A stretch of 49,454 nucleotides of DNA, taken from the IMG/VR virus record IMGVR_UViG_3300009954_000001, positions 1-49,454 of that record; one strand, given 5' to 3'. Source of the stretch: a virus. The position numbers were made by a program, and so were the translations under genes. Each line of letters starts with the position of its first letter. The first letter of the stretch is position 1. The notes under the pieces were generated by a model that was not told where the DNA came from, ran no database searches, and saw nothing but the letters and a program-made list of their open reading frames with translations. Shown in pieces: positions 1 to 43,101 of the stretch.

Positions 1-127
1 ACTTAAAGGCTGGTTTGCGCTTACGCCTGGCTTCACCGCCTACGATGCCGCAAAGTGGGCACAGCGCGCCGAGCGCGCGGCGCACGGCGACCGACAGGCC
101 ATCGCTCAGCTCGATGGGGCCGGCTTC
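1..127. repeat. Terminal redundancy, copy 1 (identical to 49328-49454)
   Basis: Read directly: acttaaaggctggtttgcgc...gatggggccggcttc is present at both window ends, 127/127 identical. An ORF reads through it, so it behaves as a circular-assembly overlap. Confidence 0.95.
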
Positions 128-145
128 GCCCTGGCGGTCCTCTGA
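1..145 (+). CDS. 3' part of a 75-aa hypothetical protein (5' part at 49245-49454)
   Basis: The frame opened by ATG 49245 continues through the repeat. The first full codon here starts at base 2 and the stop is TGA 143-145. Confidence 0.5.
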   Translation, partial: LKGWFALTPGFTAYDAAKWAQRAERAAHGDRQAIAQLDGAGFALAVL

Positions 146-302
146 CCCTCACGCCGCGTTGGGCAACACACGTGTGGCTTGCGCCTGACGGGCACCTGTT
201 ATGTGAGCGAGTCTGACATTGCTCAGATGCCCTTGACCGTCACACCTGAGCGCTTTAAGCAGCTCCACCGCTAAGCAGTGACACACATCACAACCTAACA
301 AT

Positions 303-332
303 TTGACAACCGCCTAGCACCGCTGCTAGGCT
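303..332 (+). promoter_or_regulatory. Candidate early promoter TTGACA-18-TAGGCT
   Basis: TTGACA at 303-308 and TAGGCT (TANNNT) at 327-332, intergenic, about 40 nt upstream of ATG 370. It shares the extended TTGACAAC box with sites at 1834, 4565 and 12075. Confidence 0.45.
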
Positions 333-369
333 GAAAGCACAAGCCAACCACAGAGAAAGCGAAAGCACC

Positions 370-663
370 ATGCGAGACACAATCCACGCGACAGTCACCA
401 AGTGGACCGAGTACCGTACCACTAGCGGGCGGTGGTCAAAGGTCCGACACGATGAAACCGAGAAAGATTTTAAGCCGCACAACCTGCGCAATTTCTTCGA
501 TGCAAAGTTCCCGGGTGAATGGCGCGGTTACGCATACACCATGCACGGATACCTACCCGTTAGTGTGACCGTCCCGTCGCCCGATGGAAGCGAACGCCGC
601 GTGTATCGTTTCGACTACTACACCGGCCAGCGTGAGGTCACTTCGTACACGTACGAAGACTAG
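370..663 (+). CDS. Hypothetical early protein (97 aa)
   Basis: ATG ORF preceded by a purine-rich gaaagcgaaag stretch. No recognisable motifs. Confidence 0.6.
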   Translation: MRDTIHATVTKWTEYRTTSGRWSKVRHDETEKDFKPHNLRNFFDAKFPGEWRGYAYTMHGYLPVSVTVPSPDGSERRVYRFDYYTGQREVTSYTYED

Positions 664-675
664 CCGTCTTCAACT

Positions 676-723
676 TCCACGCATCAATGGCGATAAAGCT
701 GGGTTCGATCCCCGGGCGTGGAA
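676..723 (+). ncRNA. Armless tRNA-like minihelix (acceptor stem + T-arm, no anticodon arm)
   Basis: tccacgc 676-682 pairs with gcgtgga 716-722 (7/7). The ctggg/cccgg stem closes T-loop TTCGATC 704-710. A723 sits at the discriminator position. Only 16 nt lie between the acceptor 5' strand and the T-arm. Confidence 0.35.
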
Positions 724-774
724 CGATGCGACACAAGTCGCACAAACCACCAACAAACCGGAAGGTTAATTAAC

Positions 775-1032
775 ATGGCACACACCTACAAGACGGACCC
801 CTGGCACGTCAAAGAAGCGCGCGGGGCGGCGTGGCATCCCACGCAGTTCGCCCGCGAACACTCGCCCTACACTAAGGCGCGCCGGGACCTGAGTAAGCGT
901 ATCCGCGCCCGTGAACGCCGCGAAATGGACCGCATCATGCGCGATATTGAAGCGTGGGAGGACTACTACCCTACGGGCGTGACGCTGCGAGAGTTCGCAA
1001 CCGATACCAACCGTGACGGTTGGCAGTACTGA
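775..1032 (+). CDS. Hypothetical protein (85 aa), Arg/Glu-rich
   Basis: ATG 775 with GGAAGG 10 nt upstream. The longer 718 start would overlap the structured element. Confidence 0.6.
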   Translation: MAHTYKTDPWHVKEARGAAWHPTQFAREHSPYTKARRDLSKRIRARERREMDRIMRDIEAWEDYYPTGVTLREFATDTNRDGWQY

Positions 1033-1092
1033 CCAATAACCGCTAGGGACGGGGGTTAACGCCCCCGCCCCCACACAGAAAGACTAGAGACA

Positions 1093-1467
1093 ATGGGTAT
1101 TCTCGAAAACATTGATAGCGCCGCATGGGACTTGGAACACGGGCGCATTGACAGCCTGTATCCAGTTAGCAACAACTTTACTATTGTTCCTGACTATGAT
1201 GGGAATATTGGTGAAACTAACTATAGTGTGTTTTCTTACACTACGCTAGTCGCACGTGTCATTTTGGACGACGACGATAGGGAGCCTTGCACGGTACTTG
1301 TTGAACAGGATGCGTTTCACCATTCCATTACTACTAGCCGACACTTGCGCCGTTTCTTGTCGGCAATGGTTGGCCGTGTTGACTTTAACGCACTTTACAA
1401 GGCGTGCGACCGTGAACGTGTTGACGGTAACAGAGTGCGCTTTATCAATGTTAGGGAGGTCGCCTAA
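1093..1467 (+). CDS. Hypothetical protein (124 aa)
   Basis: ATG ORF. Its stop overlaps the next start (TAATG). Confidence 0.65.
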   Translation: MGILENIDSAAWDLEHGRIDSLYPVSNNFTIVPDYDGNIGETNYSVFSYTTLVARVILDDDDREPCTVLVEQDAFHHSITTSRHLRRFLSAMVGRVDFNALYKACDRERVDGNRVRFINVREVA

Positions 1468-1829
1468 TGACTATCGAAAGTGCCTTGCAAGGTATCTACC
1501 CTAACCAGATCGTTGCTGAGCCTGTTCGCCTTGGTAGCAAGTTATATCTCACGATGAATCACAATGACCTAGCGCACAATTGGATTAGCTACTGGGTATC
1601 TAGGGAGGACACAAACGAAATTATCTTCAAGTTTAACCCTAGTGGCACTGTGTACGTATACAACGACGTTACGCTAACGCCACATGAGAAACGGGTCATT
1701 AGGAAGATTATCAGCATGTGGCGCGAACACATGCGCCCTGACTGGCAGACTTTCGAGAGTATGCGCGCGCATCCTGCGTGCATCGAGTCAGCCACAACCC
1801 TAGTGCCTGTAGTGCACAACACATTCTGA
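1467..1829 (+). CDS. Hypothetical protein (120 aa)
   Basis: ATG overlaps the upstream stop, suggesting translational coupling. Confidence 0.65.
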   Translation: MTIESALQGIYPNQIVAEPVRLGSKLYLTMNHNDLAHNWISYWVSREDTNEIIFKFNPSGTVYVYNDVTLTPHEKRVIRKIISMWREHMRPDWQTFESMRAHPACIESATTLVPVVHNTF

Positions 1830-1833
1830 CAAC

Positions 1834-1862
1834 TTGACAACAACCGATCAAAAACCTACACT
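1834..1862 (+). promoter_or_regulatory. Candidate promoter TTGACA-17-TACACT
   Basis: TTGACA 1834-1839 and TACACT 1857-1862, in the gap between 1829 and 1907. Confidence 0.45.
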
Positions 1863-1906
1863 AGAAGCATGGGCACAAGCCAACGACAGAAAGAGAGACA
1901 CAAATC

Positions 1907-2086
1907 ATGCGAATCAACAAGGACACTATGCAGGTTATCAAGGCCGCTACAGCCGCTAAGATCACATTTCGAAAGATGGGAGCCGACTACGGGGACAACC
2001 CTAGCGTGCTTGCCGCTATTGACGCGGTTGTGACTGCCCTTGACGGCCTGTCGGATGCGGTAGTTATGAGCGAGATCGAAGCGTGA
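1907..2086 (+). CDS. Hypothetical small protein (59 aa, below the ORF-track cutoff)
   Basis: ATG 1907 after agaaagagaga, in frame to TGA 2084-2086. It fills an otherwise empty + strand gap, and the listed antisense ORF 1856-2089 is less likely. Confidence 0.45.
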   Translation: MRINKDTMQVIKAATAAKITFRKMGADYGDNPSVLAAIDAVVTALDGLSDAVVMSEIEA

Positions 2087-2088
2087 CA

Positions 2089-2283
2089 ATGGAGCTGACT
2101 TGGGAGCAGATGGACTTTATTCGTATCGCGCTTGAAGCCCATATTGACGCGCTACGCAAGGATGCGGCGGCACTTGGTGAACCACTCGTTACCGAGACAA
2201 TTGAAGAACGCATTGACAAGATAGGACCCGTGTATGACGCACTAGTATCTGGTGACTGTGTTCTCATTCTGGAAGAATACTAG
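2089..2283 (+). CDS. Hypothetical acidic protein (64 aa)
   Basis: ATG 2089 (GTG 2083 is an alternative), abutting the previous stop. Confidence 0.55.
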   Translation: MELTWEQMDFIRIALEAHIDALRKDAAALGEPLVTETIEERIDKIGPVYDALVSGDCVLILEEY

Positions 2284-2298
2284 CCTAGTTAACTAGGC
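2283..2298. repeat. Perfect 16-bp palindrome GCCTAGTTAACTAGGC
   Basis: Read directly. It overlaps the stop codon of 2089-2283. A third AACTAGGC half-site lies at 2348-2355. Confidence 0.85.
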
Positions 2299-2299
2299 A

Positions 2300-2348
2300 T
2301 CCCTAGCCTGTCGGTAGGTAAATGCAGGTTCAACCCCTGCCTAGGGAA
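2300..2348 (+). ncRNA. Second armless tRNA-like minihelix
   Basis: tccctag 2300-2306 pairs with ctaggga 2341-2347 (7/7). The gcagg/cctgc stem closes T-loop TTCAACC 2329-2335. A2348 sits at the discriminator position. The internal segment is 17 nt (cct-gtcggt-agg hairpin plus taaat). Confidence 0.35.
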
Positions 2349-2396
2349 CTAGGCTAACCAAGGTGGTTAGCTTTCAACAACCGAGAGGTAGAAACC

Positions 2397-2861
2397 ATGT
2401 GCAATGAGTACGCATACCAGGTAGCTAAGGAACTCATCTACCCTGAACTCACTGTTGAGTTCGCTGCCGACGTTATCAATGGCTACGTTTACGGTAGTCA
2501 GATCTGGGACGAGGTTTGCACTCTGACCGGCGGTTGGTGCAATGACGCTAATGTGTTCCTCGCATGGGACAAAATGGGCCGTCCTGAGGAATGGGATTAC
2601 CTGCCTGGTGACTACGATCTGGAACGTGACCCGGCCCGTAGGCGCGCAATGGTCGCCAATGCCCGTATCTCTGCAATGGCCGAAACGGTGGCAGAAGCGC
2701 TGTACGATGTCGTTAATGAGACTGTCGTTAACGAGGGTTGGAAGTGCGTGCCCGCTAACGAGATTAACGAGGATATGCACGGCGTTGGTTGGCTTGAGGA
2801 AGGTTGCGACGCATTGGACGTTTACACCGAAAGTTACCTGTTTAAGCCTAACGGAAAGTGA
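2397..2861 (+). CDS. Hypothetical protein (154 aa)
   Basis: ATG ORF with gagaggtag upstream. Confidence 0.65.
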   Translation: MCNEYAYQVAKELIYPELTVEFAADVINGYVYGSQIWDEVCTLTGGWCNDANVFLAWDKMGRPEEWDYLPGDYDLERDPARRRAMVANARISAMAETVAEALYDVVNETVVNEGWKCVPANEINEDMHGVGWLEEGCDALDVYTESYLFKPNGK

Positions 2862-2869
2862 GAACTAAC

Positions 2870-3112
2870 ATGTTGCCTAATTGGTATGGTATCCCCGGTA
2901 TCGGCTTTGAGTGGCGTGGTTCCCAAAGTGACCCGATGTTGCATTACAAGGGGCATGTGTTTAACGCCCATGACATGCAAGATGGGTTGTGGGAGAACTA
3001 CCAGGAAGATCTGGAAACAGGGTATACGTCCCTTGAGTGGGAGGAATATGTCAGGGACAACGCAACTGACTACCTTGACGATGCACTATTTTTTGAGCGG
3101 GAGGAATGGTAA
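2870..3112 (+). CDS. Hypothetical protein (80 aa)
   Basis: ATG 2870 after gaaagtgag. GTG 2858 is an alternative start. Confidence 0.6.
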   Translation: MLPNWYGIPGIGFEWRGSQSDPMLHYKGHVFNAHDMQDGLWENYQEDLETGYTSLEWEEYVRDNATDYLDDALFFEREEW

Positions 3113-3114
3113 AC

Positions 3115-3495
3115 ATGTGGGAAGAATTGCTGAGCGTCATTAGTGACCGTTACTATCCGCTTGAATCCATGCAGGAACACACGGCAGGCTATATTGACCT
3201 TGACCAAGGTTGGGACCTAACACGTGTTAACCCTTGGTTTACTGAGCGCGGCTATGAGTTTGTGGGACTACTTGACCTGTTCTCTGAGAATGAGCCTAGC
3301 GGCGTGTACGTGAATGTTGACGGGTACGTATGGCGTTGTCGCACTAACGCCGCTGACAATAGCCTATATTGGTACTGGCAGTCAGACAACGAGGGCATTA
3401 CACTGGATGACTTTAAGTTCCTGCATGGATATGCGCACCAGTTTATCTGGGACAACGACACAAAGACATGTGAAGTAATCAACATGGCAGAATGA
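3115..3495 (+). CDS. Hypothetical protein (126 aa)
   Basis: ATG 3115 lies 10 nt after GGGAGGA. ATG 3106 is an alternative start. Confidence 0.6.
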   Translation: MWEELLSVISDRYYPLESMQEHTAGYIDLDQGWDLTRVNPWFTERGYEFVGLLDLFSENEPSGVYVNVDGYVWRCRTNAADNSLYWYWQSDNEGITLDDFKFLHGYAHQFIWDNDTKTCEVINMAE

Positions 3496-3544
3496 CTGCC
3501 AACCTGATAGACTAGAACCAACCAAGCGAAAGCGAGAAACAAAA

Positions 3545-4051
3545 ATGATCCAGACACAGTTTGCACACACTGTCACAATTCCCGATGAATGGGAGCATAA
3601 CGGACACACTTTACAAGTGTTTCAGGATGATTGGGCAGAGTGTCCTACACAGTGGCTTGCTAGCGCCGATGCACTGTGTGTCATTGGGGGTCCACATGGT
3701 TACATCCTGGATCACCCCGCCGAAACGGACTGCCCCGCTATGTGGGAATTTGACATCTTCCACAAGGAACATGGGCGTACGCCTACGCAGGAAGAATGGG
3801 AGAATCTTTGCCCTGACTATTGGGTATACGTTGGTTGGTATAGGATGGATACTGACCGTCTGTTTGCGGCCGCGTTCCGCAAGGATGCGTATCCTACTGA
3901 CCCTTGCGAGTCATGGGTGCATGAATACTCTCTTTGGGCCGATGGCTATGTGTGGTTTGTGTTGGACACAACTACAGATGACTCTCTGGCAGGTATCTAT
4001 GCCAAGTCCAAGGAAGACGCTATCAAGTACTACACCGAAAACTACATGTGA
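3545..4051 (+). CDS. Hypothetical protein (168 aa), Trp/Asp-rich
   Basis: ATG ORF. The overlapping 3561-4349 frame is rejected for its N-terminal part. Confidence 0.65.
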   Translation: MIQTQFAHTVTIPDEWEHNGHTLQVFQDDWAECPTQWLASADALCVIGGPHGYILDHPAETDCPAMWEFDIFHKEHGRTPTQEEWENLCPDYWVYVGWYRMDTDRLFAAAFRKDAYPTDPCESWVHEYSLWADGYVWFVLDTTTDDSLAGIYAKSKEDAIKYYTENYM

Positions 4052-4061
4052 GGAGAACAAC

Positions 4062-4349
4062 ATGATCGAAAATTGGGATACTAAGTTTTGTTTTACCGCC
4101 GATGAGCTGGGAGTTAGCAAGGATGAGTACGACTACGTGACACGTAGCGGCGACCTGCGTATCCGGGAAGACTTTGAGGCTATGGCCGCCGATGCCGTGG
4201 ATGAGCTGCATAAACCTATCACGGTGCTGGGTAGGACTCTCAAGGCGAGTGACATTGCCAGGGAGATGCTGAGCGATGACTGGGAGGTATACGTCAACGC
4301 TTGCATTGCACACCTAATCGCAATGGAAGAGATTAAGGAAGTCCGATAG
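4062..4349 (+). CDS. Hypothetical protein (95 aa)
   Basis: ATG 4062 after GAGGAGA. This is the C-terminal part of track ORF 3561-4349. Confidence 0.6.
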   Translation: MIENWDTKFCFTADELGVSKDEYDYVTRSGDLRIREDFEAMAADAVDELHKPITVLGRTLKASDIAREMLSDDWEVYVNACIAHLIAMEEIKEVR

Positions 4350-4453
4350 TGTTCGCGGTCGCCTACTACACCCTGTTCCTACTGGCTATCCTCGCCCCTG
4401 TCGGCGCATACTGTCACCACGCGGAACAACGGGACAACAAGCATGACGATTAG
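4349..4453 (+). CDS. Possible 34-aa single-TM peptide
   Basis: GTG overlaps the upstream stop (TAGTG). Translation is VFAVAYYTLFLLAILAPVGAYCHHAEQRDNKHDD. It is short, so uncertain. Confidence 0.3.
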   Translation: MFAVAYYTLFLLAILAPVGAYCHHAEQRDNKHDD

Positions 4454-4594
4454 CCTTGAAGAACTAATGAGCCTACCCATAGCACCTAAGCCGCTACCCG
4501 TTGTTATCCCGGCATGGGAGCTAGGTGTAAATTACGGCTTAGTGCATGGGCAAGACGATTACAATTGACAACAACAACGAAAGTGAGAACAACA

Positions 4595-4930
4595 ATGGAC
4601 ACTGAAAACCTCGTCAACAAGATTATCAAGCTCAACGCCGAGATTAGCGCCCTGACTGAAGCACGAGACGCGCTTAAGACTGAACTGTGCGCACAGTTCA
4701 ACGTGGGGGACAAGATTCAGGTCGGTGACACGCGCGTTACGTTCGCCGTGCGACAGACGATTAACGCTGCCGCTGTTGAAGCACTGCCCACGTTTAAGAA
4801 ACTGCCTAAGGCAGTCAGGGAGGCCGTCTACGACAAGCCAAAGCTCAACACGCGTAAGCTTGCGGCGCTTGATCTTATTGATCTGTCGCCCGCTACTACC
4901 GTATCGGACGTGTACGCGACTTTCCGATGA
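4595..4930 (+). CDS. Hypothetical protein (111 aa), coiled-coil N-terminus
   Basis: ATG 4595 after gaaagtgaga. The upstream extension to 4514 is basic and low-complexity. Confidence 0.6.
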   Translation: MDTENLVNKIIKLNAEISALTEARDALKTELCAQFNVGDKIQVGDTRVTFAVRQTINAAAVEALPTFKKLPKAVREAVYDKPKLNTRKLAALDLIDLSPATTVSDVYATFR

Positions 4931-5151
4931 ATTGGAAGCAATACGGGACGGGCGATATTGTCACTGTCGAACAGGTTGAAAATATCGCCCGTTCCCTGGA
5001 GGAACAGGAACTGCAAGAATATAGCACCATGTGGAACGAGGCGGTACGACAGATGCGCGCCGCCGAAATTATCCACAACAACCTCGGCGTGGGAGCCGAG
5101 GTAGAACTGCCTAATGGCATGTCAATTTATATCAAACGTGAAAGTGAGTAA
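4927..5151 (+). CDS. Hypothetical protein (74 aa)
   Basis: ATGA start/stop overlap with the upstream gene. Confidence 0.6.
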   Translation: MNWKQYGTGDIVTVEQVENIARSLEEQELQEYSTMWNEAVRQMRAAEIIHNNLGVGAEVELPNGMSIYIKRESE

Positions 5152-5156
5152 TCAAA

Positions 5157-5576
5157 ATGTTTGCATCTTACGTATTGGACGGCGTTTTCTGTTGGCACGA
5201 GGTTGAAGACGATGTGTTTAATGAACTTTATTGCGCTTGTGAGATTGGGCACTACCCGCGCGGTGGTGACTCTGAGTCTGATTACTACCGTGCATGGGAA
5301 TATTGGTCGAACAGTGACATGTTCTGGGAGTGGCTTACCGACAAGGCCAAGGAATATGGTTTTGTTGACTACGACAAGCAACCGCAAGACGGTACGTTTA
5401 TGTGGATTCAAGCTGAGGAAATGCTTGTTGTTCAACCTAGTGATTCTAAGGTAGAACTGCCTACCGAGGTTGTCGCTACGTTCGATAGGGACAGTCTGTA
5501 CGAAACGGAATACGCGGAGGGCATTGTCCAGGATGGTGTGTTCTACGCCACTGTTATTGCACGGGAGCTTGGCTAA
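5157..5576 (+). CDS. Hypothetical protein, paralog 1 of a tandem trio
   Basis: The C-terminal motif YAEGIVQDGVFYATV is shared with the next two genes. Confidence 0.65.
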   Translation: MFASYVLDGVFCWHEVEDDVFNELYCACEIGHYPRGGDSESDYYRAWEYWSNSDMFWEWLTDKAKEYGFVDYDKQPQDGTFMWIQAEEMLVVQPSDSKVELPTEVVATFDRDSLYETEYAEGIVQDGVFYATVIARELG

Positions 5577-5848
5577 TGAATATCAACTGGTCAAAGCCAC
5601 ACACAGTAGCATATCCAGAACAGGTAGAGGTTTGGCATGATGGGCTATTCAGATACCATGAAATCACGGGGCTTTACTGGGTGCCCGCTAACGAGGAAAT
5701 CGACTTTCAACCACTATATATTCTTGAAGCTCATGATTTTGACAGCTTTGAAGCTGCAACAGGAACTGTTAAGGATGGCTTGTTCTATGTCGAGTCATGC
5801 CGTTTTGAAGGGAGAGATTACCTTGCAGATGCCTTGGACAACAGTTGA
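5576..5848 (+). CDS. Hypothetical protein, paralog 2
   Basis: TAATG coupling. Carries motif ATGTVKDGLFYVES. Confidence 0.6.
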   Translation: MNINWSKPHTVAYPEQVEVWHDGLFRYHEITGLYWVPANEEIDFQPLYILEAHDFDSFEAATGTVKDGLFYVESCRFEGRDYLADALDNS

Positions 5849-6086
5849 AGCACTGACGAAAGACGGAAATGTCCCTTACGAGGGACAGGACTCTGGGTTT
5901 ATCTGGGAGGTGGAGAATGGGATCATTATGTGTGACCCTAACTATACTAGTGTGGACTTCCAGACTGAATACAAACTGACTGAGGAAGAAATTAAGACAC
6001 TCCCATATGCTGAGGGCATTGTTAACGATGGGGTATTTTATGTCGCATCAGCACTAATCGAAGGGAGCTTCTACAATGCAGACTGA
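5829..6086 (+). CDS. Hypothetical protein, paralog 3 (85 aa)
   Basis: ATG 5829 in the frame of track ORF 5637-6086. Carries motif YAEGIVNDGVFYVAS. Confidence 0.55.
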   Translation: MPWTTVEALTKDGNVPYEGQDSGFIWEVENGIIMCDPNYTSVDFQTEYKLTEEEIKTLPYAEGIVNDGVFYVASALIEGSFYNAD

Positions 6087-37805: not shown

Positions 37806-38831
37806 TTACTTAGATTCTACCAGCTTCACGATGCCATCAGCGTCCTGCTCGACAACCAGCTTACCGACAATCAGCTTGCCGTCCTCACCGAAAATCGAGC
37901 AAGCGCCGTCGAGACGGGTCTGGCACAGTCCGACAGCCATAGCGCCCGATTCCGTGAGGAAGTAGTCGCTGCCGTTGTACGACAGCCAGCCGGTGCGCAT
38001 AGCGCCGTTTTCCTCAAGGTAGTACCACTTGCTCTTGACGAGCTGCCAGCCGGTCTGCATCTGCCCCTTGTCGTTCAAGAGGAACCAGTGCTCACCGACC
38101 TTCACCCAGCCAGTCTCCATCTCACCATAACGCCCATCGTGGACATCATGCAGGAAATACCAGTGACCATCGACGTGCTGCCAACCGAACTGCAACCAGC
38201 CCTTCTCGTTAGCGTAGTACCACTTGTCGCCCACAGGGAACCAGCCAGTTTCGTAGCCACCGTCTTCAGTACGGTACCACCAACCACCATTCTGCGACAC
38301 CCAACCCTCCTTCTCGGACAGGTCAGCATCAAGGTTGTCGTAATACTGCTGGGCCTTCTCGATGTACTCGTTCGCATACGTGTCACGCAGCGAGGCAGGG
38401 CACATCGTGGAGTAGAAGTCGCTGTGGGGGAACACATTGACTCGCCACTCAGGACGACCCAGACCATACGCACGACACAGAGCAGCAGTCAGATGCGCGC
38501 CCGCGTCGATGGTGGCCTCACCGACATCCCAGCCGCCCTCAGCGCCCGTCGAGTTCGCGTGCTCAATGCCAATCGACAGCTTGTTCACACCTGGGCAGTG
38601 CCATGCAGTATCCCAGTCGTGGACATACTGCGCAATAGCGCCGTTGATGTCAACATCGTAGTGCGCAGACGTACCATTGCCGCTGAAGGCACCGTACACA
38701 TCTTGGTGCGACATGGCCTTGCCAGCGTTGTGGTGGATGATGATGCGGTCAATAGCGTTGCCACCACGGCCCGCATCGAAATTGTCGATCCACAGGTTGT
38801 AGTCGGCGGTCAGGTCAGTCCAACTGATCAT
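37806..38831 (-). CDS. Endolysin: N-acetylmuramoyl-L-alanine amidase + choline-binding-type (CW_binding_1) repeats
   Basis: Amidase_2 signatures IIIHHNAG and HSDF..TMCP. About six GW-x-Y/F repeats (e.g. TGWVKVGEHWFLLNDKGQMQ). Confidence 0.9.
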   Translation of the reverse strand: MISWTDLTADYNLWIDNFDAGRGGNAIDRIIIHHNAGKAMSHQDVYGAFSGNGTSAHYDVDINGAIAQYVHDWDTAWHCPGVNKLSIGIEHANSTGAEGGWDVGEATIDAGAHLTAALCRAYGLGRPEWRVNVFPHSDFYSTMCPASLRDTYANEYIEKAQQYYDNLDADLSEKEGWVSQNGGWWYRTEDGGYETGWFPVGDKWYYANEKGWLQFGWQHVDGHWYFLHDVHDGRYGEMETGWVKVGEHWFLLNDKGQMQTGWQLVKSKWYYLEENGAMRTGWLSYNGSDYFLTESGAMAVGLCQTRLDGACSIFGEDGKLIVGKLVVEQDADGIVKLVESK

Positions 38832-42072: not shown

Positions 42073-42462
42073 TTACAAGGACAGTGTATCAGTCTTCAGT
42101 GCCCAATCAAGACTTTCATTGAGTTCTTCCTTGTTACTACAAAACTCGGCACACCGAAGAACATCAGTTAGAAACTCCTCCCAGAAGCGCTTGTCTGAAA
42201 GACCCTGATATTTCTCGGAAAGTCCGAATGGTTCCTTGAACTCCACAGTGTGAAGCCAATGCGTGAAGACAGGCACGTTAACGGCGTAGCTAGTAATGTC
42301 ACCCCAGCTAGAATACCATCCATCGACAGCATGAACTCCACCATAGCTATCTGTGAATGTGTAGATAGGATGGTCCATCATGCCCTTAAACTCGCACAGC
42401 TCACAGGTGCCTGTTACATCCTCGTAAGTATTTGAGTCGAAGTCAGTAAGTCGTAACTTCAT
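42073..42462 (-). CDS. Hypothetical protein (129 aa)
   Basis: ATG after AAAGGAGAAA. Confidence 0.6.
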   Translation of the reverse strand: MKLRLTDFDSNTYEDVTGTCELCEFKGMMDHPIYTFTDSYGGVHAVDGWYSSWGDITSYAVNVPVFTHWLHTVEFKEPFGLSEKYQGLSDKRFWEEFLTDVLRCAEFCSNKEELNESLDWALKTDTLSL

Positions 42463-42481: not shown

Positions 42482-42553
42482 GTGCTGCTACAGGACTCGA
42501 ACCTGTTCCTTGGCGACTGACACCCCGTTCTTGACCAGTTAAACTAAGCAGCT
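42482..42553 (-). tRNA. tRNA-like gene with a degenerate anticodon stem (possible pseudo-tRNA, loop centre CAG)
   Basis: The T-arm is good (acagg-TTCGAGT-cctgt) and so is the D-arm (gttt/gaac). The acceptor has 6 bp plus an A.A pair at 1:72. The anticodon stem has only 3 of 5 pairs and there is no long variable arm. Confidence 0.4.
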
Positions 42554-42638
42554 TGCCACCTGACCAGGGTAGCCCAGCTCTTCGATGGAAGTCTTGGTCG
42601 TGACACTTTGTGCTATCGAGCAACCTCATCGTCAAGCG

Positions 42639-42709
42639 CTCCCAGACTAGGACTCGAACCTAGTCCGACAGGGCCAGAACCTGCCGTGCTGCCATTACAC
42701 TATCTGGGA
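42639..42709 (-). tRNA. tRNA-Gln (anticodon CTG)
   Basis: Hand fold: acceptor tcccaga/tctggga, D stem gtgt/gcac, anticodon stem gcagg/cctgt with loop ttCTGgc, T-arm ctagg-TTCGAGT-cctag. Confidence 0.85.
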
Positions 42710-42784
42710 TAAAGGCTGGGTAGTCCCGGAGGACACCCAGCAGCTAGGTAGTTACACTTGTGTAACTACAGGCAATACTGCCCG

Positions 42785-42857
42785 TCGGAATGGTGAGACT
42801 CGAACTCACGACCCCCTGGTCCCAAACCAGGTGCGCTGCCTACTGCGCTACATTCCG
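42785..42857 (-). tRNA. tRNA-Pro (anticodon TGG)
   Basis: Acceptor cggaatg/cattccg, D stem gcgc/gcgc, anticodon stem cctgg/ccagg with loop ttTGGga, T-arm gtgag-TTCGAGT-ctcac. Confidence 0.9.
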
Positions 42858-43016
42858 TTGGTGGGGGTGCTATTCGGACGACAGAAACACACACAAAAAA
42901 GTGTCGTCCCTAGGGTGCTACCCCGCACGTGACCCCCGTCACGGCAACCGGCACGTCCTCTTGATCAGAGAGGCAGGCAGCTATGGCCTAATCATCCAGC
43001 ATCGTCCGGTGCTTGG

Positions 43017-43101
43017 TGGTCCCCTCGGTGAGAGTCGAACTCACACTCCTTTCGGAACCCGGGTTTGAGCCGAGCGCGTCTGCCTGTTCCGCCACAAGGG
43101 G
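43017..43101 (-). tRNA. tRNA-Leu (anticodon CAA), class II, CCA encoded
   Basis: Acceptor ccccttg/cgagggg, anticodon loop ctCAAac, long variable arm ttccgaaaggagt, T-arm gtgag-TTCGACT-ctcac, followed by ACCA. Confidence 0.9.

Follow-up and report, generated by a model that had tools for sequence, protein, structure and literature searches.

The region described here lies in the early arm of a phage genome, the IMG/VR virus record IMGVR_UViG_3300009954_000001, which is complete at 49,454 bp, carries direct terminal repeats and was analysed over its full length (hereafter, the window). Between two early genes, at 2283-2371, this genome carries a three-part module consisting of a transfer RNA (tRNA)-like minihelix without an anticodon arm and of the two hairpins that frame it, all on the plus strand. 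The upstream neighbour is a small early open reading frame (ORF) at 2083-2283, encoding 66 amino acids when read from the GTG at 2083, with an alternative ATG at 2089, and closed by a TAG stop codon at 2281-2283. The gap of 113 nucleotides (nt) that follows it, 2284-2396, had been presented in a preliminary description as almost entirely structured; the minimum free energy fold of this single sequence indeed has three domains (z = -2.4). The centroid fold of the same sequence is devoid of the acceptor stem, because CTAG-rich repeats give competing folds. The first domain is the perfect 16-bp palindrome GCCTAGTTAACTAGGC at 2283-2298, which folds into a hairpin with a 6-bp stem (GCCTAG/CTAGGC) and a TTAA loop, overlaps the last base of the stop codon, as had been noticed, and ends 1 nt 5' of the minihelix.

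The minihelix itself occupies 49 nt (2300-2348) and comprises a 7-bp acceptor stem (TCCCTAG at 2300-2306 paired with CTAGGGA at 2341-2347), a 17-nt internal segment (2307-2323, CCT-GTCGGT-AGG followed by TAAAT), a 5-bp T stem (GCAGG at 2324-2328 paired with CCTGC at 2336-2340) closed by the T loop TTCAACC (2329-2335), and a discriminator A at 2348. Within the internal segment, a mini D-arm (CCT/AGG, 2307-2309/2316-2318) exposes the D-like loop GTCGGT with G2313 and G2314, and is joined to the T stem by the linker TAAAT (2319-2323). The 3' trailer CTAG (2349-2352) does not encode CCA, and its first C is found family-wide at position +1. The downstream hairpin, GCTAACC-AAGGT-GGTTAGC, had been placed at 2352-2370; its sequence and the TTTC after it are as then given, and its position is 2353-2371, with a possible extension to 2351-2373. 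It starts 3-5 nt 3' of the discriminator and is followed by the ribosome-binding site (RBS) GAGAGG (2383-2388) and the ATG at 2397 (2383-2399 in all) of the next early gene, which encodes 154 amino acids (2397-2861) and is persistently linked to the element. One sister minihelix, the sole other copy in the genome, is found at 676-723, where the flanking hairpins are GAAGAC-TAGCC-GTCTTC upstream, with the stop codon in its loop, and TGCGAC-ACAA-GTCGCA downstream.

The minihelix is a genuine element under selection for its fold. A covariance search had been proposed for it, and the result is clear: the motif is kept in about 50 related contigs, with strong covariation. A seed of 13 copies, collected by hand from relatives and aligned, showed 99.5% pairing and compensatory changes in 11 of the 15 pairs. 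The covariance model built from it (R1) found exactly two copies in the window, namely 2300-2348 (70.2 bits, E = 8e-18) and 676-723 (60.9 bits), while the next match was the phage's own tRNA-Gln at 17.6 bits and reverse strands reached 7-10 bits. Each of five complete relatives carries two or three strong copies according to the same model. The family was then enlarged by a degenerate pattern scan of IMG/VR followed by the covariance model, which yielded 128 copies, 90 of them distinct, in the related contigs mentioned above. Early operons carry from two up to six or seven copies, diverged from one another and most numerous in loci L065, L069 and L085. Across the 90 distinct members, 99.2% of the alignment cells pair and 13 of the 15 pairs show compensatory changes. 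None of 500 shuffles reached the observed level of pairing, and sliding the partners lowered it to 57-61% or less. Moreover, RNAalifold applied to a MAFFT alignment that had not been fitted to the model recovered the same acceptor stem, mini D-arm and T arm, together with the downstream hairpin. The parts of the minihelix, the 3-bp internal hairpin and the kinship with 676-723, all present in the preliminary description, are therefore borne out both in the sequence and by covariation among relatives.

Conservation is concentrated on the bases that define a tRNA elbow. Among the 90 distinct sequences, the T loop keeps U54, R57 and A58 in every case and U55 and C56 in 89, the G53:C61 pair is kept in 89, and the 7 + 5 bp stack, with no intervening base, is constant. 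The two D-loop Gs occur in 84 and 82 of the 84 rows that have letters there. Position 73 is a purine, followed at +1 by C in 115 of 118 distinct modules, at +2 by G or T and at +3 by A or G. By contrast, the stretch that takes the place of the anticodon arm varies in sequence, the whole internal segment measuring 16-24 nt, and the family alignment contains no conserved read-out sequence in this variable interior, which speaks for recognition by shape. Covariation is unrestricted at pairs 5-7 and within the T stem. The motif GGTTCRANNCC, to which the T arm conforms, was observed four times in the window versus 0.79 expected.

Compared with a canonical tRNA, the element has the 7-bp acceptor, the 5-bp T stem with G53:C61 and the UUCRANN T loop, and lacks both the anticodon arm with its 7-nt loop and the 4-bp D stem preceded by U8/N9. 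Tools designed for true tRNAs pass it by: RF00005 had no match within positions 1-6000, even at E <= 10; ARAGORN called only three tRNAs in the window, at 42638-43101, and no transfer-messenger RNA (tmRNA); and Rfam, run on the early arm and on the loci of 18 relatives, returned only true tRNAs and no ribozyme in the equivalent slots. Its kinship is nevertheless traceable in the metagenome-assembled genomes (MAGs) of candidate hosts, where the acceptor top UCCC/GGGA, the D-loop AAUGG and the R73-C74 end without CCA are as in tRNA-Gln(UUG) and tRNA-Asn(GUU). These are the two tRNAs with U1:A72 and, along with the phage tRNA-Gln, the best tRNA matches to the model. The N73-C followed by divergence is also seen in most tRNA-Gln, Asn and Glu genes of these MAGs, and the R73-C74 end is shared with most CCA-less tRNA genes in the MAGs that carry the phages. 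Judging from these sequence resemblances, the most probable ancestor of the family is a U1:A72 tRNA of the Asn/Gln type that lost its anticodon arm.

Two further tRNA-like sequences deserve mention beside this family. A fourth tRNA-like gene of the window, missed by ARAGORN, lies on the minus strand at 42482-42553, with 33.5 bits for the Rfam tRNA model (gathering cut-off 29); its anticodon stem is defective, its pair 1:72 is mismatched, and about 10 nt separate its end from the RBS of the gene starting at 42462. This gene is a candidate for a further punctuation-type element, here on the leftward arm. Among relatives with about 60% G+C, ARAGORN reported, upstream of the minihelix series, a tRNA-Ala whose anticodon, AGC, is unusual (L069:1247-1322, plus strand; L062:3119-3195, minus strand). 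The Rfam tRNA model did not accept it (E > 0.1), and it may represent a precursor form of the family or a member of greater length.

The flanking hairpins are the second constant feature of the module. Hairpins with a free energy (dG) of -4 kcal/mol or lower occur upstream in 100 of 120 distinct modules, ending at a median of 1 nt before the element, and downstream hairpins, also in 100 of 120, start at a median of 3 nt after the discriminator. Both flanks fold more stably than their shuffled versions, at -7.1 versus -3.5 and -9.8 versus -4.2 kcal/mol, respectively. The upstream stems of relatives are unlike one another in sequence (GCCTAG/CTAGGC, CCC/GGG, GTTCC/GGAAC, GTCCC/GGGAC), and modules of the sister type hold the stop codon in the loop of this hairpin. 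Downstream, RNAalifold found compensatory changes in 4 of 7 pairs. The stretch that follows the downstream hairpin is A/C-rich, is predicted to be unpaired and carries the RBS. As side observations, AAGGUGGU in the downstream hairpin agrees at 7 of 8 positions with AAGGAGGU, the ideal Shine-Dalgarno complement, with no start codon at the right distance, and a separate G+C-rich hairpin at 1041-1075 (GGGACGGGGG-TTAAC-GCCCCCGCCCC), without a U tract, follows the gene at 776-1032; the latter may function within the first early unit, either as a stabiliser or as a U-less terminator.

The module is also fixed with respect to genes. Elements always lie on the coding strand, start at a median of 13 nt after an ORF stop codon (118 of 123 cases), and are separated by a median of 48.5 nt from the Shine-Dalgarno sequence and start codon of the next gene. 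In the window, conserved TTGACAAC-type promoters are found at 303 and at 1834. The one at 1834-1862, proposed in the preliminary description, reads TTGACA-17 nt-TACACT, agrees with the consensus at 10 of 12 positions and is conserved in relatives, where orthologous TTGACAAC...TACACT/TACTAT sites occur in L002, L003, L004, L005, L006, L007, L009, L011, L012 and L013. The transcript that includes the module probably begins there. More generally, these sites form an early promoter family, TTGACAAC-N-TA(C/G)ACT or TACTAT, represented by 303-332 and 1834-1862 in the window and by about 2-6 pattern matches per locus in L002-L013. A consensus scan detected no promoter-like site between either element and the genes after it. 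The next such site downstream of 2300-2348 is near 5632, and at least eight downstream genes lack a site of their own before it; genes from 2397 onwards would therefore have to be transcribed through the module, which is not the end of a unit. The earlier idea that the transcription unit ends here has to be abandoned on these grounds, as well as for want of a U tract in relatives, in which the downstream hairpin is followed by CGACAA, CCAAAC or CCTACA.

The neighbourhood is moreover mosaic. The upstream gene 2083-2283 is missing in L009 and L010, where the element comes directly after the previous gene, and the module is kept while its neighbours are swapped or deleted: the gene upstream ends in ...ILEEY* or ...EIEA*, and the one downstream begins with MCNEYAY, MSHNELPNWYG or MQDTTYATV. 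BLAST alignments break at 2298-2300, 2371 and 2393, so that the joints at 2298-2300 and 2393 coincide with the edges of the module. In the same vein, small genes come and go among relatives (2083-2283 and 2397-2861 compared with L009-L013), with breakpoints at the 5' end of the element (2298-2300) and at the RBS (2393). The most faithful partner is the MCNEYAY family of 154 amino acids: of its 32 loci, 25 have the element directly upstream, some of them in phages of about 60% G+C whose protein is only about 30% identical. Searches of Pfam and PHROG matched neither this protein nor the upstream one of 66 amino acids, and AlphaFold2 modelled the former poorly, with a predicted local distance difference test (pLDDT) score of 48. 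The 154-amino-acid protein has 278 homologues in public assemblies. Short contigs bearing the gene for this neighbouring protein include at least one plain metagenome scaffold, and such contigs carry no information on RNA ends.

As regards function, we consider it moderately probable that the module is a cut site for host ribonuclease (RNase) P and a host 3' tRNA-processing activity, with hairpins that would shield the newly formed messenger RNA (mRNA) ends. The fold and its selection, the placement, the strand specificity and the flank geometry are observed; from them we infer the cleavages and the stabilising effect. The region 2283-2371 would act as a three-part RNA module inside a polycistronic early transcript issued from promoter 1834. 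Its core would copy those parts of a tRNA that maturation enzymes read, namely the 12-bp acceptor/T stack, the T loop closed by G53:C61 and a purine discriminator followed by C, and the GG of the mini D-arm would dock on the T loop to form a tRNA elbow. Host RNase P would then cut immediately 5' of U2300, and a host 3' activity, either an endonuclease of the RNase Z type or exonucleases, would cut at or just after A2348. As a result, the upstream mRNA would end in the 2283-2298 hairpin with a 1-nt tail and resist 3' exonucleases, while the downstream mRNA would start 3-5 nt before the 2353-2371 hairpin and resist RNase E/J acting in a 5'-end-dependent manner. In bacterial mRNA decay, such hairpin-end geometries protect against both kinds of attack. 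Since the enzymes of tRNA maturation read the acceptor/T stack and the elbow rather than the anticodon, a cis-acting processing site is the best-supported reading, and the flanking hairpins, which abut the predicted cut sites at medians of 1 and 3 nt, lend it further support. Candidate-host MAGs encode a type-A RNase P RNA, and a Pfam scan covering 39 of the approximately 80 predicted ORFs of the phage revealed no RNA-processing enzyme, which fits a reliance on host enzymes.

Several observations nevertheless weigh against processing. The cleavages are predictions from sequence, and the position preceding the 2300-2348 element is an A, whereas a U at -1 is generally held to be preferred by bacterial RNase P. 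As for RNase Z, the candidate-host MAGs gave only weak metallo-beta-lactamase matches, the best of which reached 53 bits against a cut-off of 293. A flanking hairpin is missing on one side or the other in about one-sixth of the modules, and a dG of -4 kcal/mol or lower is also reached by 52% of control coding windows, so that the hairpin argument rests mainly on fixed position and not on mere presence. Lastly, the top of the acceptor stem, UCCC/GGGA, is nearly invariant (C2:G71 in 88 of 88 sequences, U1:A72 in 79 of 88), and the downstream hairpin keeps the sequence AACC-AWGGY-GGTT across groups that differ by ten G+C percentage points. Neither constancy should be required by RNase P or RNase Z, and together they hint at an additional, sequence-specific partner.

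Such a partner is at the centre of the most serious alternative, in which the excised and probably CCA-tailed 49-nt mimic would accumulate and act in trans as a small RNA. By binding or titration it would engage a protein, of the host or of a defence system, that reads acceptor ends, additional copies raising the dose. The contrast between the near-invariant top four pairs and the freely covarying pairs 5-7 and T stem, the identity of that top with the tRNA-Asn(GUU) and tRNA-Gln(UUG) of candidate hosts, the presence of several copies per early operon, and the location in an early region amid small genes without Pfam or PHROG matches all speak in its favour. However, no single-stranded read-out sequence is conserved, copies within one genome differ in their stems and linker, and a trans-acting RNA would require neither the fixed position from stop codon to RBS nor the flanking hairpins. 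Without an anticodon arm, the mimic could not be a decoy for anticodon nucleases, and its C3:G70 excludes the identity of an alanine minihelix: pair 3:70 is C:G in 75 of 88 sequences and G:C in 8, in place of the G3:U70 wobble of the alanine minihelix and tmRNA domain. Because action in trans would call for the same excision by RNase P and a 3'-end activity, it adds to processing more than it replaces it, and we regard it as possible, while rather improbable. A more specific version, which we hold to be unlikely and mention as speculation, is that the excised minihelices are stable CCA-tailed mimics of the acceptor end and D loop of tRNA-Asn and tRNA-Gln, made early and in several copies, which would occupy a protein that reads acceptor ends, with the AACC-AWGGY-GGTT hairpin as a second specific binding site. 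Candidate targets would be acceptor-end-modifying defence toxins, such as a MenT/AbiE-type nucleotidyltransferase or a CapRel-type pyrophosphokinase, or the GatCAB amidotransferase, an enzyme that reads U1:A72. A module that is never cut is likewise improbable: the minihelix and hairpins would form a structural knot that blocks exonucleases, insulates the folding of successive cistrons or uncouples their translation, without any endonucleolytic processing. The interval from stop codon to RBS is indeed densely structured, the upstream hairpin contains or adjoins the stop codon, and the RBS sits in the A/C-rich unpaired stretch, yet a generic roadblock has no use for an exact T loop, G53:C61, the D-loop GG, the 7 + 5 bp geometry or R73-C74, which are features read by tRNA enzymes.

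The remaining explanations were rejected. A terminator or attenuator closing the early unit, which we judge very unlikely, could draw only on this genome, where the G+C-containing hairpin 2353-2371 is followed by TTTC; the terminator scan did not call this plus-strand hairpin, the combination of a G+C-rich hairpin with a U tract is absent, relatives having no T run, at least eight genes further on would depend on transcription passing the module, and termination has no need of tRNA-specific bases. Still less credible is the proposal, raised in the preliminary description, that a dimeric regulator, from the phage or the host, would bind the palindrome and the AACTAGGC repeats as half-sites. The octamer does occur three times, and the perfect 16-bp palindrome and the three octamers lie within 72 bp and nowhere else in the genome, while GCCTAGC/GCTAGGC is also present in the 303 promoter. 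Counts of this kind are not significant, however, as three or more octamers were obtained in 15 of 100 shuffles and CTAGGC is not over-represented (11 observed versus 18 expected), and the half-sites are not conserved. L006 and L007 are the only relatives that have AACTAGGC, and there it belongs to the palindrome; the third copy (2347-2354) has no counterpart in any relative, the position being occupied by AACGATGC, AACTGAGC or AACTGCAC, and the palindrome is replaced at the same position by unrelated hairpins such as CCCTAGAAAGGG, GTTCCTAACGGAAC and GTCCCTAACGGGAC. At the palindrome site, conservation bears on structure, on a single strand and at the level of RNA. Equally hard to credit is a decaying tRNA pseudogene or a functionless selfish repeat. 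Descent from a U1:A72 tRNA of the Asn/Gln type is clear enough, and a degenerate tRNA is indeed present at 42482-42553 on the minus strand, but decay would not leave 99% pairing across 90 distinct sequences, hundreds of compensated changes, the same deletion architecture everywhere, and a constant strand and position, and neither terminal repeats nor target duplications were seen around the copies. Processing of the early transcript by host tRNA-maturation enzymes thus remains the reading that we prefer.

Concerning the biological setting, the window encodes a family-A DNA polymerase, an SNF2 helicase, a capsid protein, an amidase endolysin and a dUTPase; the preliminary description mentions a WhiB-like protein as well. 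A nucleotide search of the window against cultured phages gave no match, and the closest cultured capsids, those of Microbacterium, Arthrobacter and Curtobacterium phages, are only about 30% identical. Near-identical phage-sized contigs, on the other hand, sit in MAGs of oral Actinomyces, Rothia and Atopobium, and from this binning we take the host to be an oral actinobacterium. When the contigs of host genomes were scanned with the model, true matches were confined to phage-sized contigs in those oral MAGs and none was on a host chromosome. The endolysin (37806-38831, minus strand) combines an Amidase_2 domain with cell-wall repeats of the choline-binding type, which may help to narrow down the host.

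A full-text search of the literature returned no account of tRNA mimics that lack the anticodon arm and lie between phage genes, the phage minihelix corresponds to no Rfam family, and a 2023 catalogue of viral structured RNAs, in the part accessible to us, refers to tRNA-like candidates in general terms only. If cleavage is confirmed, phages of Actinomycetota would be found to use stripped-down tRNA mimics as cut signals, by which one early transcript gives rise to several separately stabilised messages. This principle of tRNA-type cut signals is documented mainly in organelles and in engineered tRNA-guide RNA (gRNA) arrays. Confirmation would also add to phage annotation an RNA family that Rfam and ARAGORN leave undetected, explain conserved "non-coding" gaps in early operons, and offer a compact natural part of about 90 nt, hairpins included, for multi-gene expression in actinobacteria. 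In addition, a specific extra partner, and with it a trans or decoy role of the excised RNA, is made conceivable by the near-invariant UCCC/GGGA top and by the conserved sequence of the downstream hairpin.

Among known systems, the t-elements of plant mitochondria have been proposed, and partly shown, to direct cleavage by RNase P and RNase Z that creates the 5' and 3' ends of mRNAs (PMC1920247, Forner et al., 2007). They share with the phage element a non-canonical tRNA-like fold with the T-arm motif GGTTCRANYCC, present here as GGTTCAACCCC at 2327-2337, and a position beside protein genes in polycistronic transcripts (PMC1920247). Unlike them, the phage element is found in phages of Actinomycetota and not in an organelle, has a uniform architecture of 48-56 nt with the anticodon arm removed and a mini D-arm of 3 bp, and occurs in series of up to six or seven copies per operon with hairpins fixed on both sides. 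In the tRNA punctuation of animal mitochondria and in synthetic tRNA-gRNA arrays, a tRNA unit between cistrons is excised by RNase P and RNase Z and the flanking RNAs are released, yet the units are working tRNAs, whereas the phage unit cannot decode. In RNAs of the mascRNA/MALAT1 type, RNase P (and RNase Z) cleave at a tRNA-like structure embedded in a long transcript, which sets a functional RNA end; in contrast with the phage element, the transcript is a eukaryotic nuclear long non-coding RNA with a full cloverleaf in a single copy at the 3' end. The tRNA-like domain of tmRNA likewise has an acceptor stem and a T arm, its D region being reduced and its anticodon arm missing, while the phage element has no G3:U70, no tag reading frame and no pseudoknots, and its 5' and 3' halves are contiguous. 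Finally, bacterial RNase P accepts acceptor/T-arm minihelices as substrates, and natural substrates other than tRNAs include precursors of the C4 RNA of phages P1 and P7 and operon mRNAs. Classic minihelices of this kind have a 3' RCCA, which pairs with the P15 loop of type-A RNA, and no mimic of the D loop, whereas the phage family has R73-C74 only, together with a GG-bearing mini D-arm; what both have in common is the 12-bp coaxial acceptor/T stack with its T loop, that is, the minimal recognition unit.

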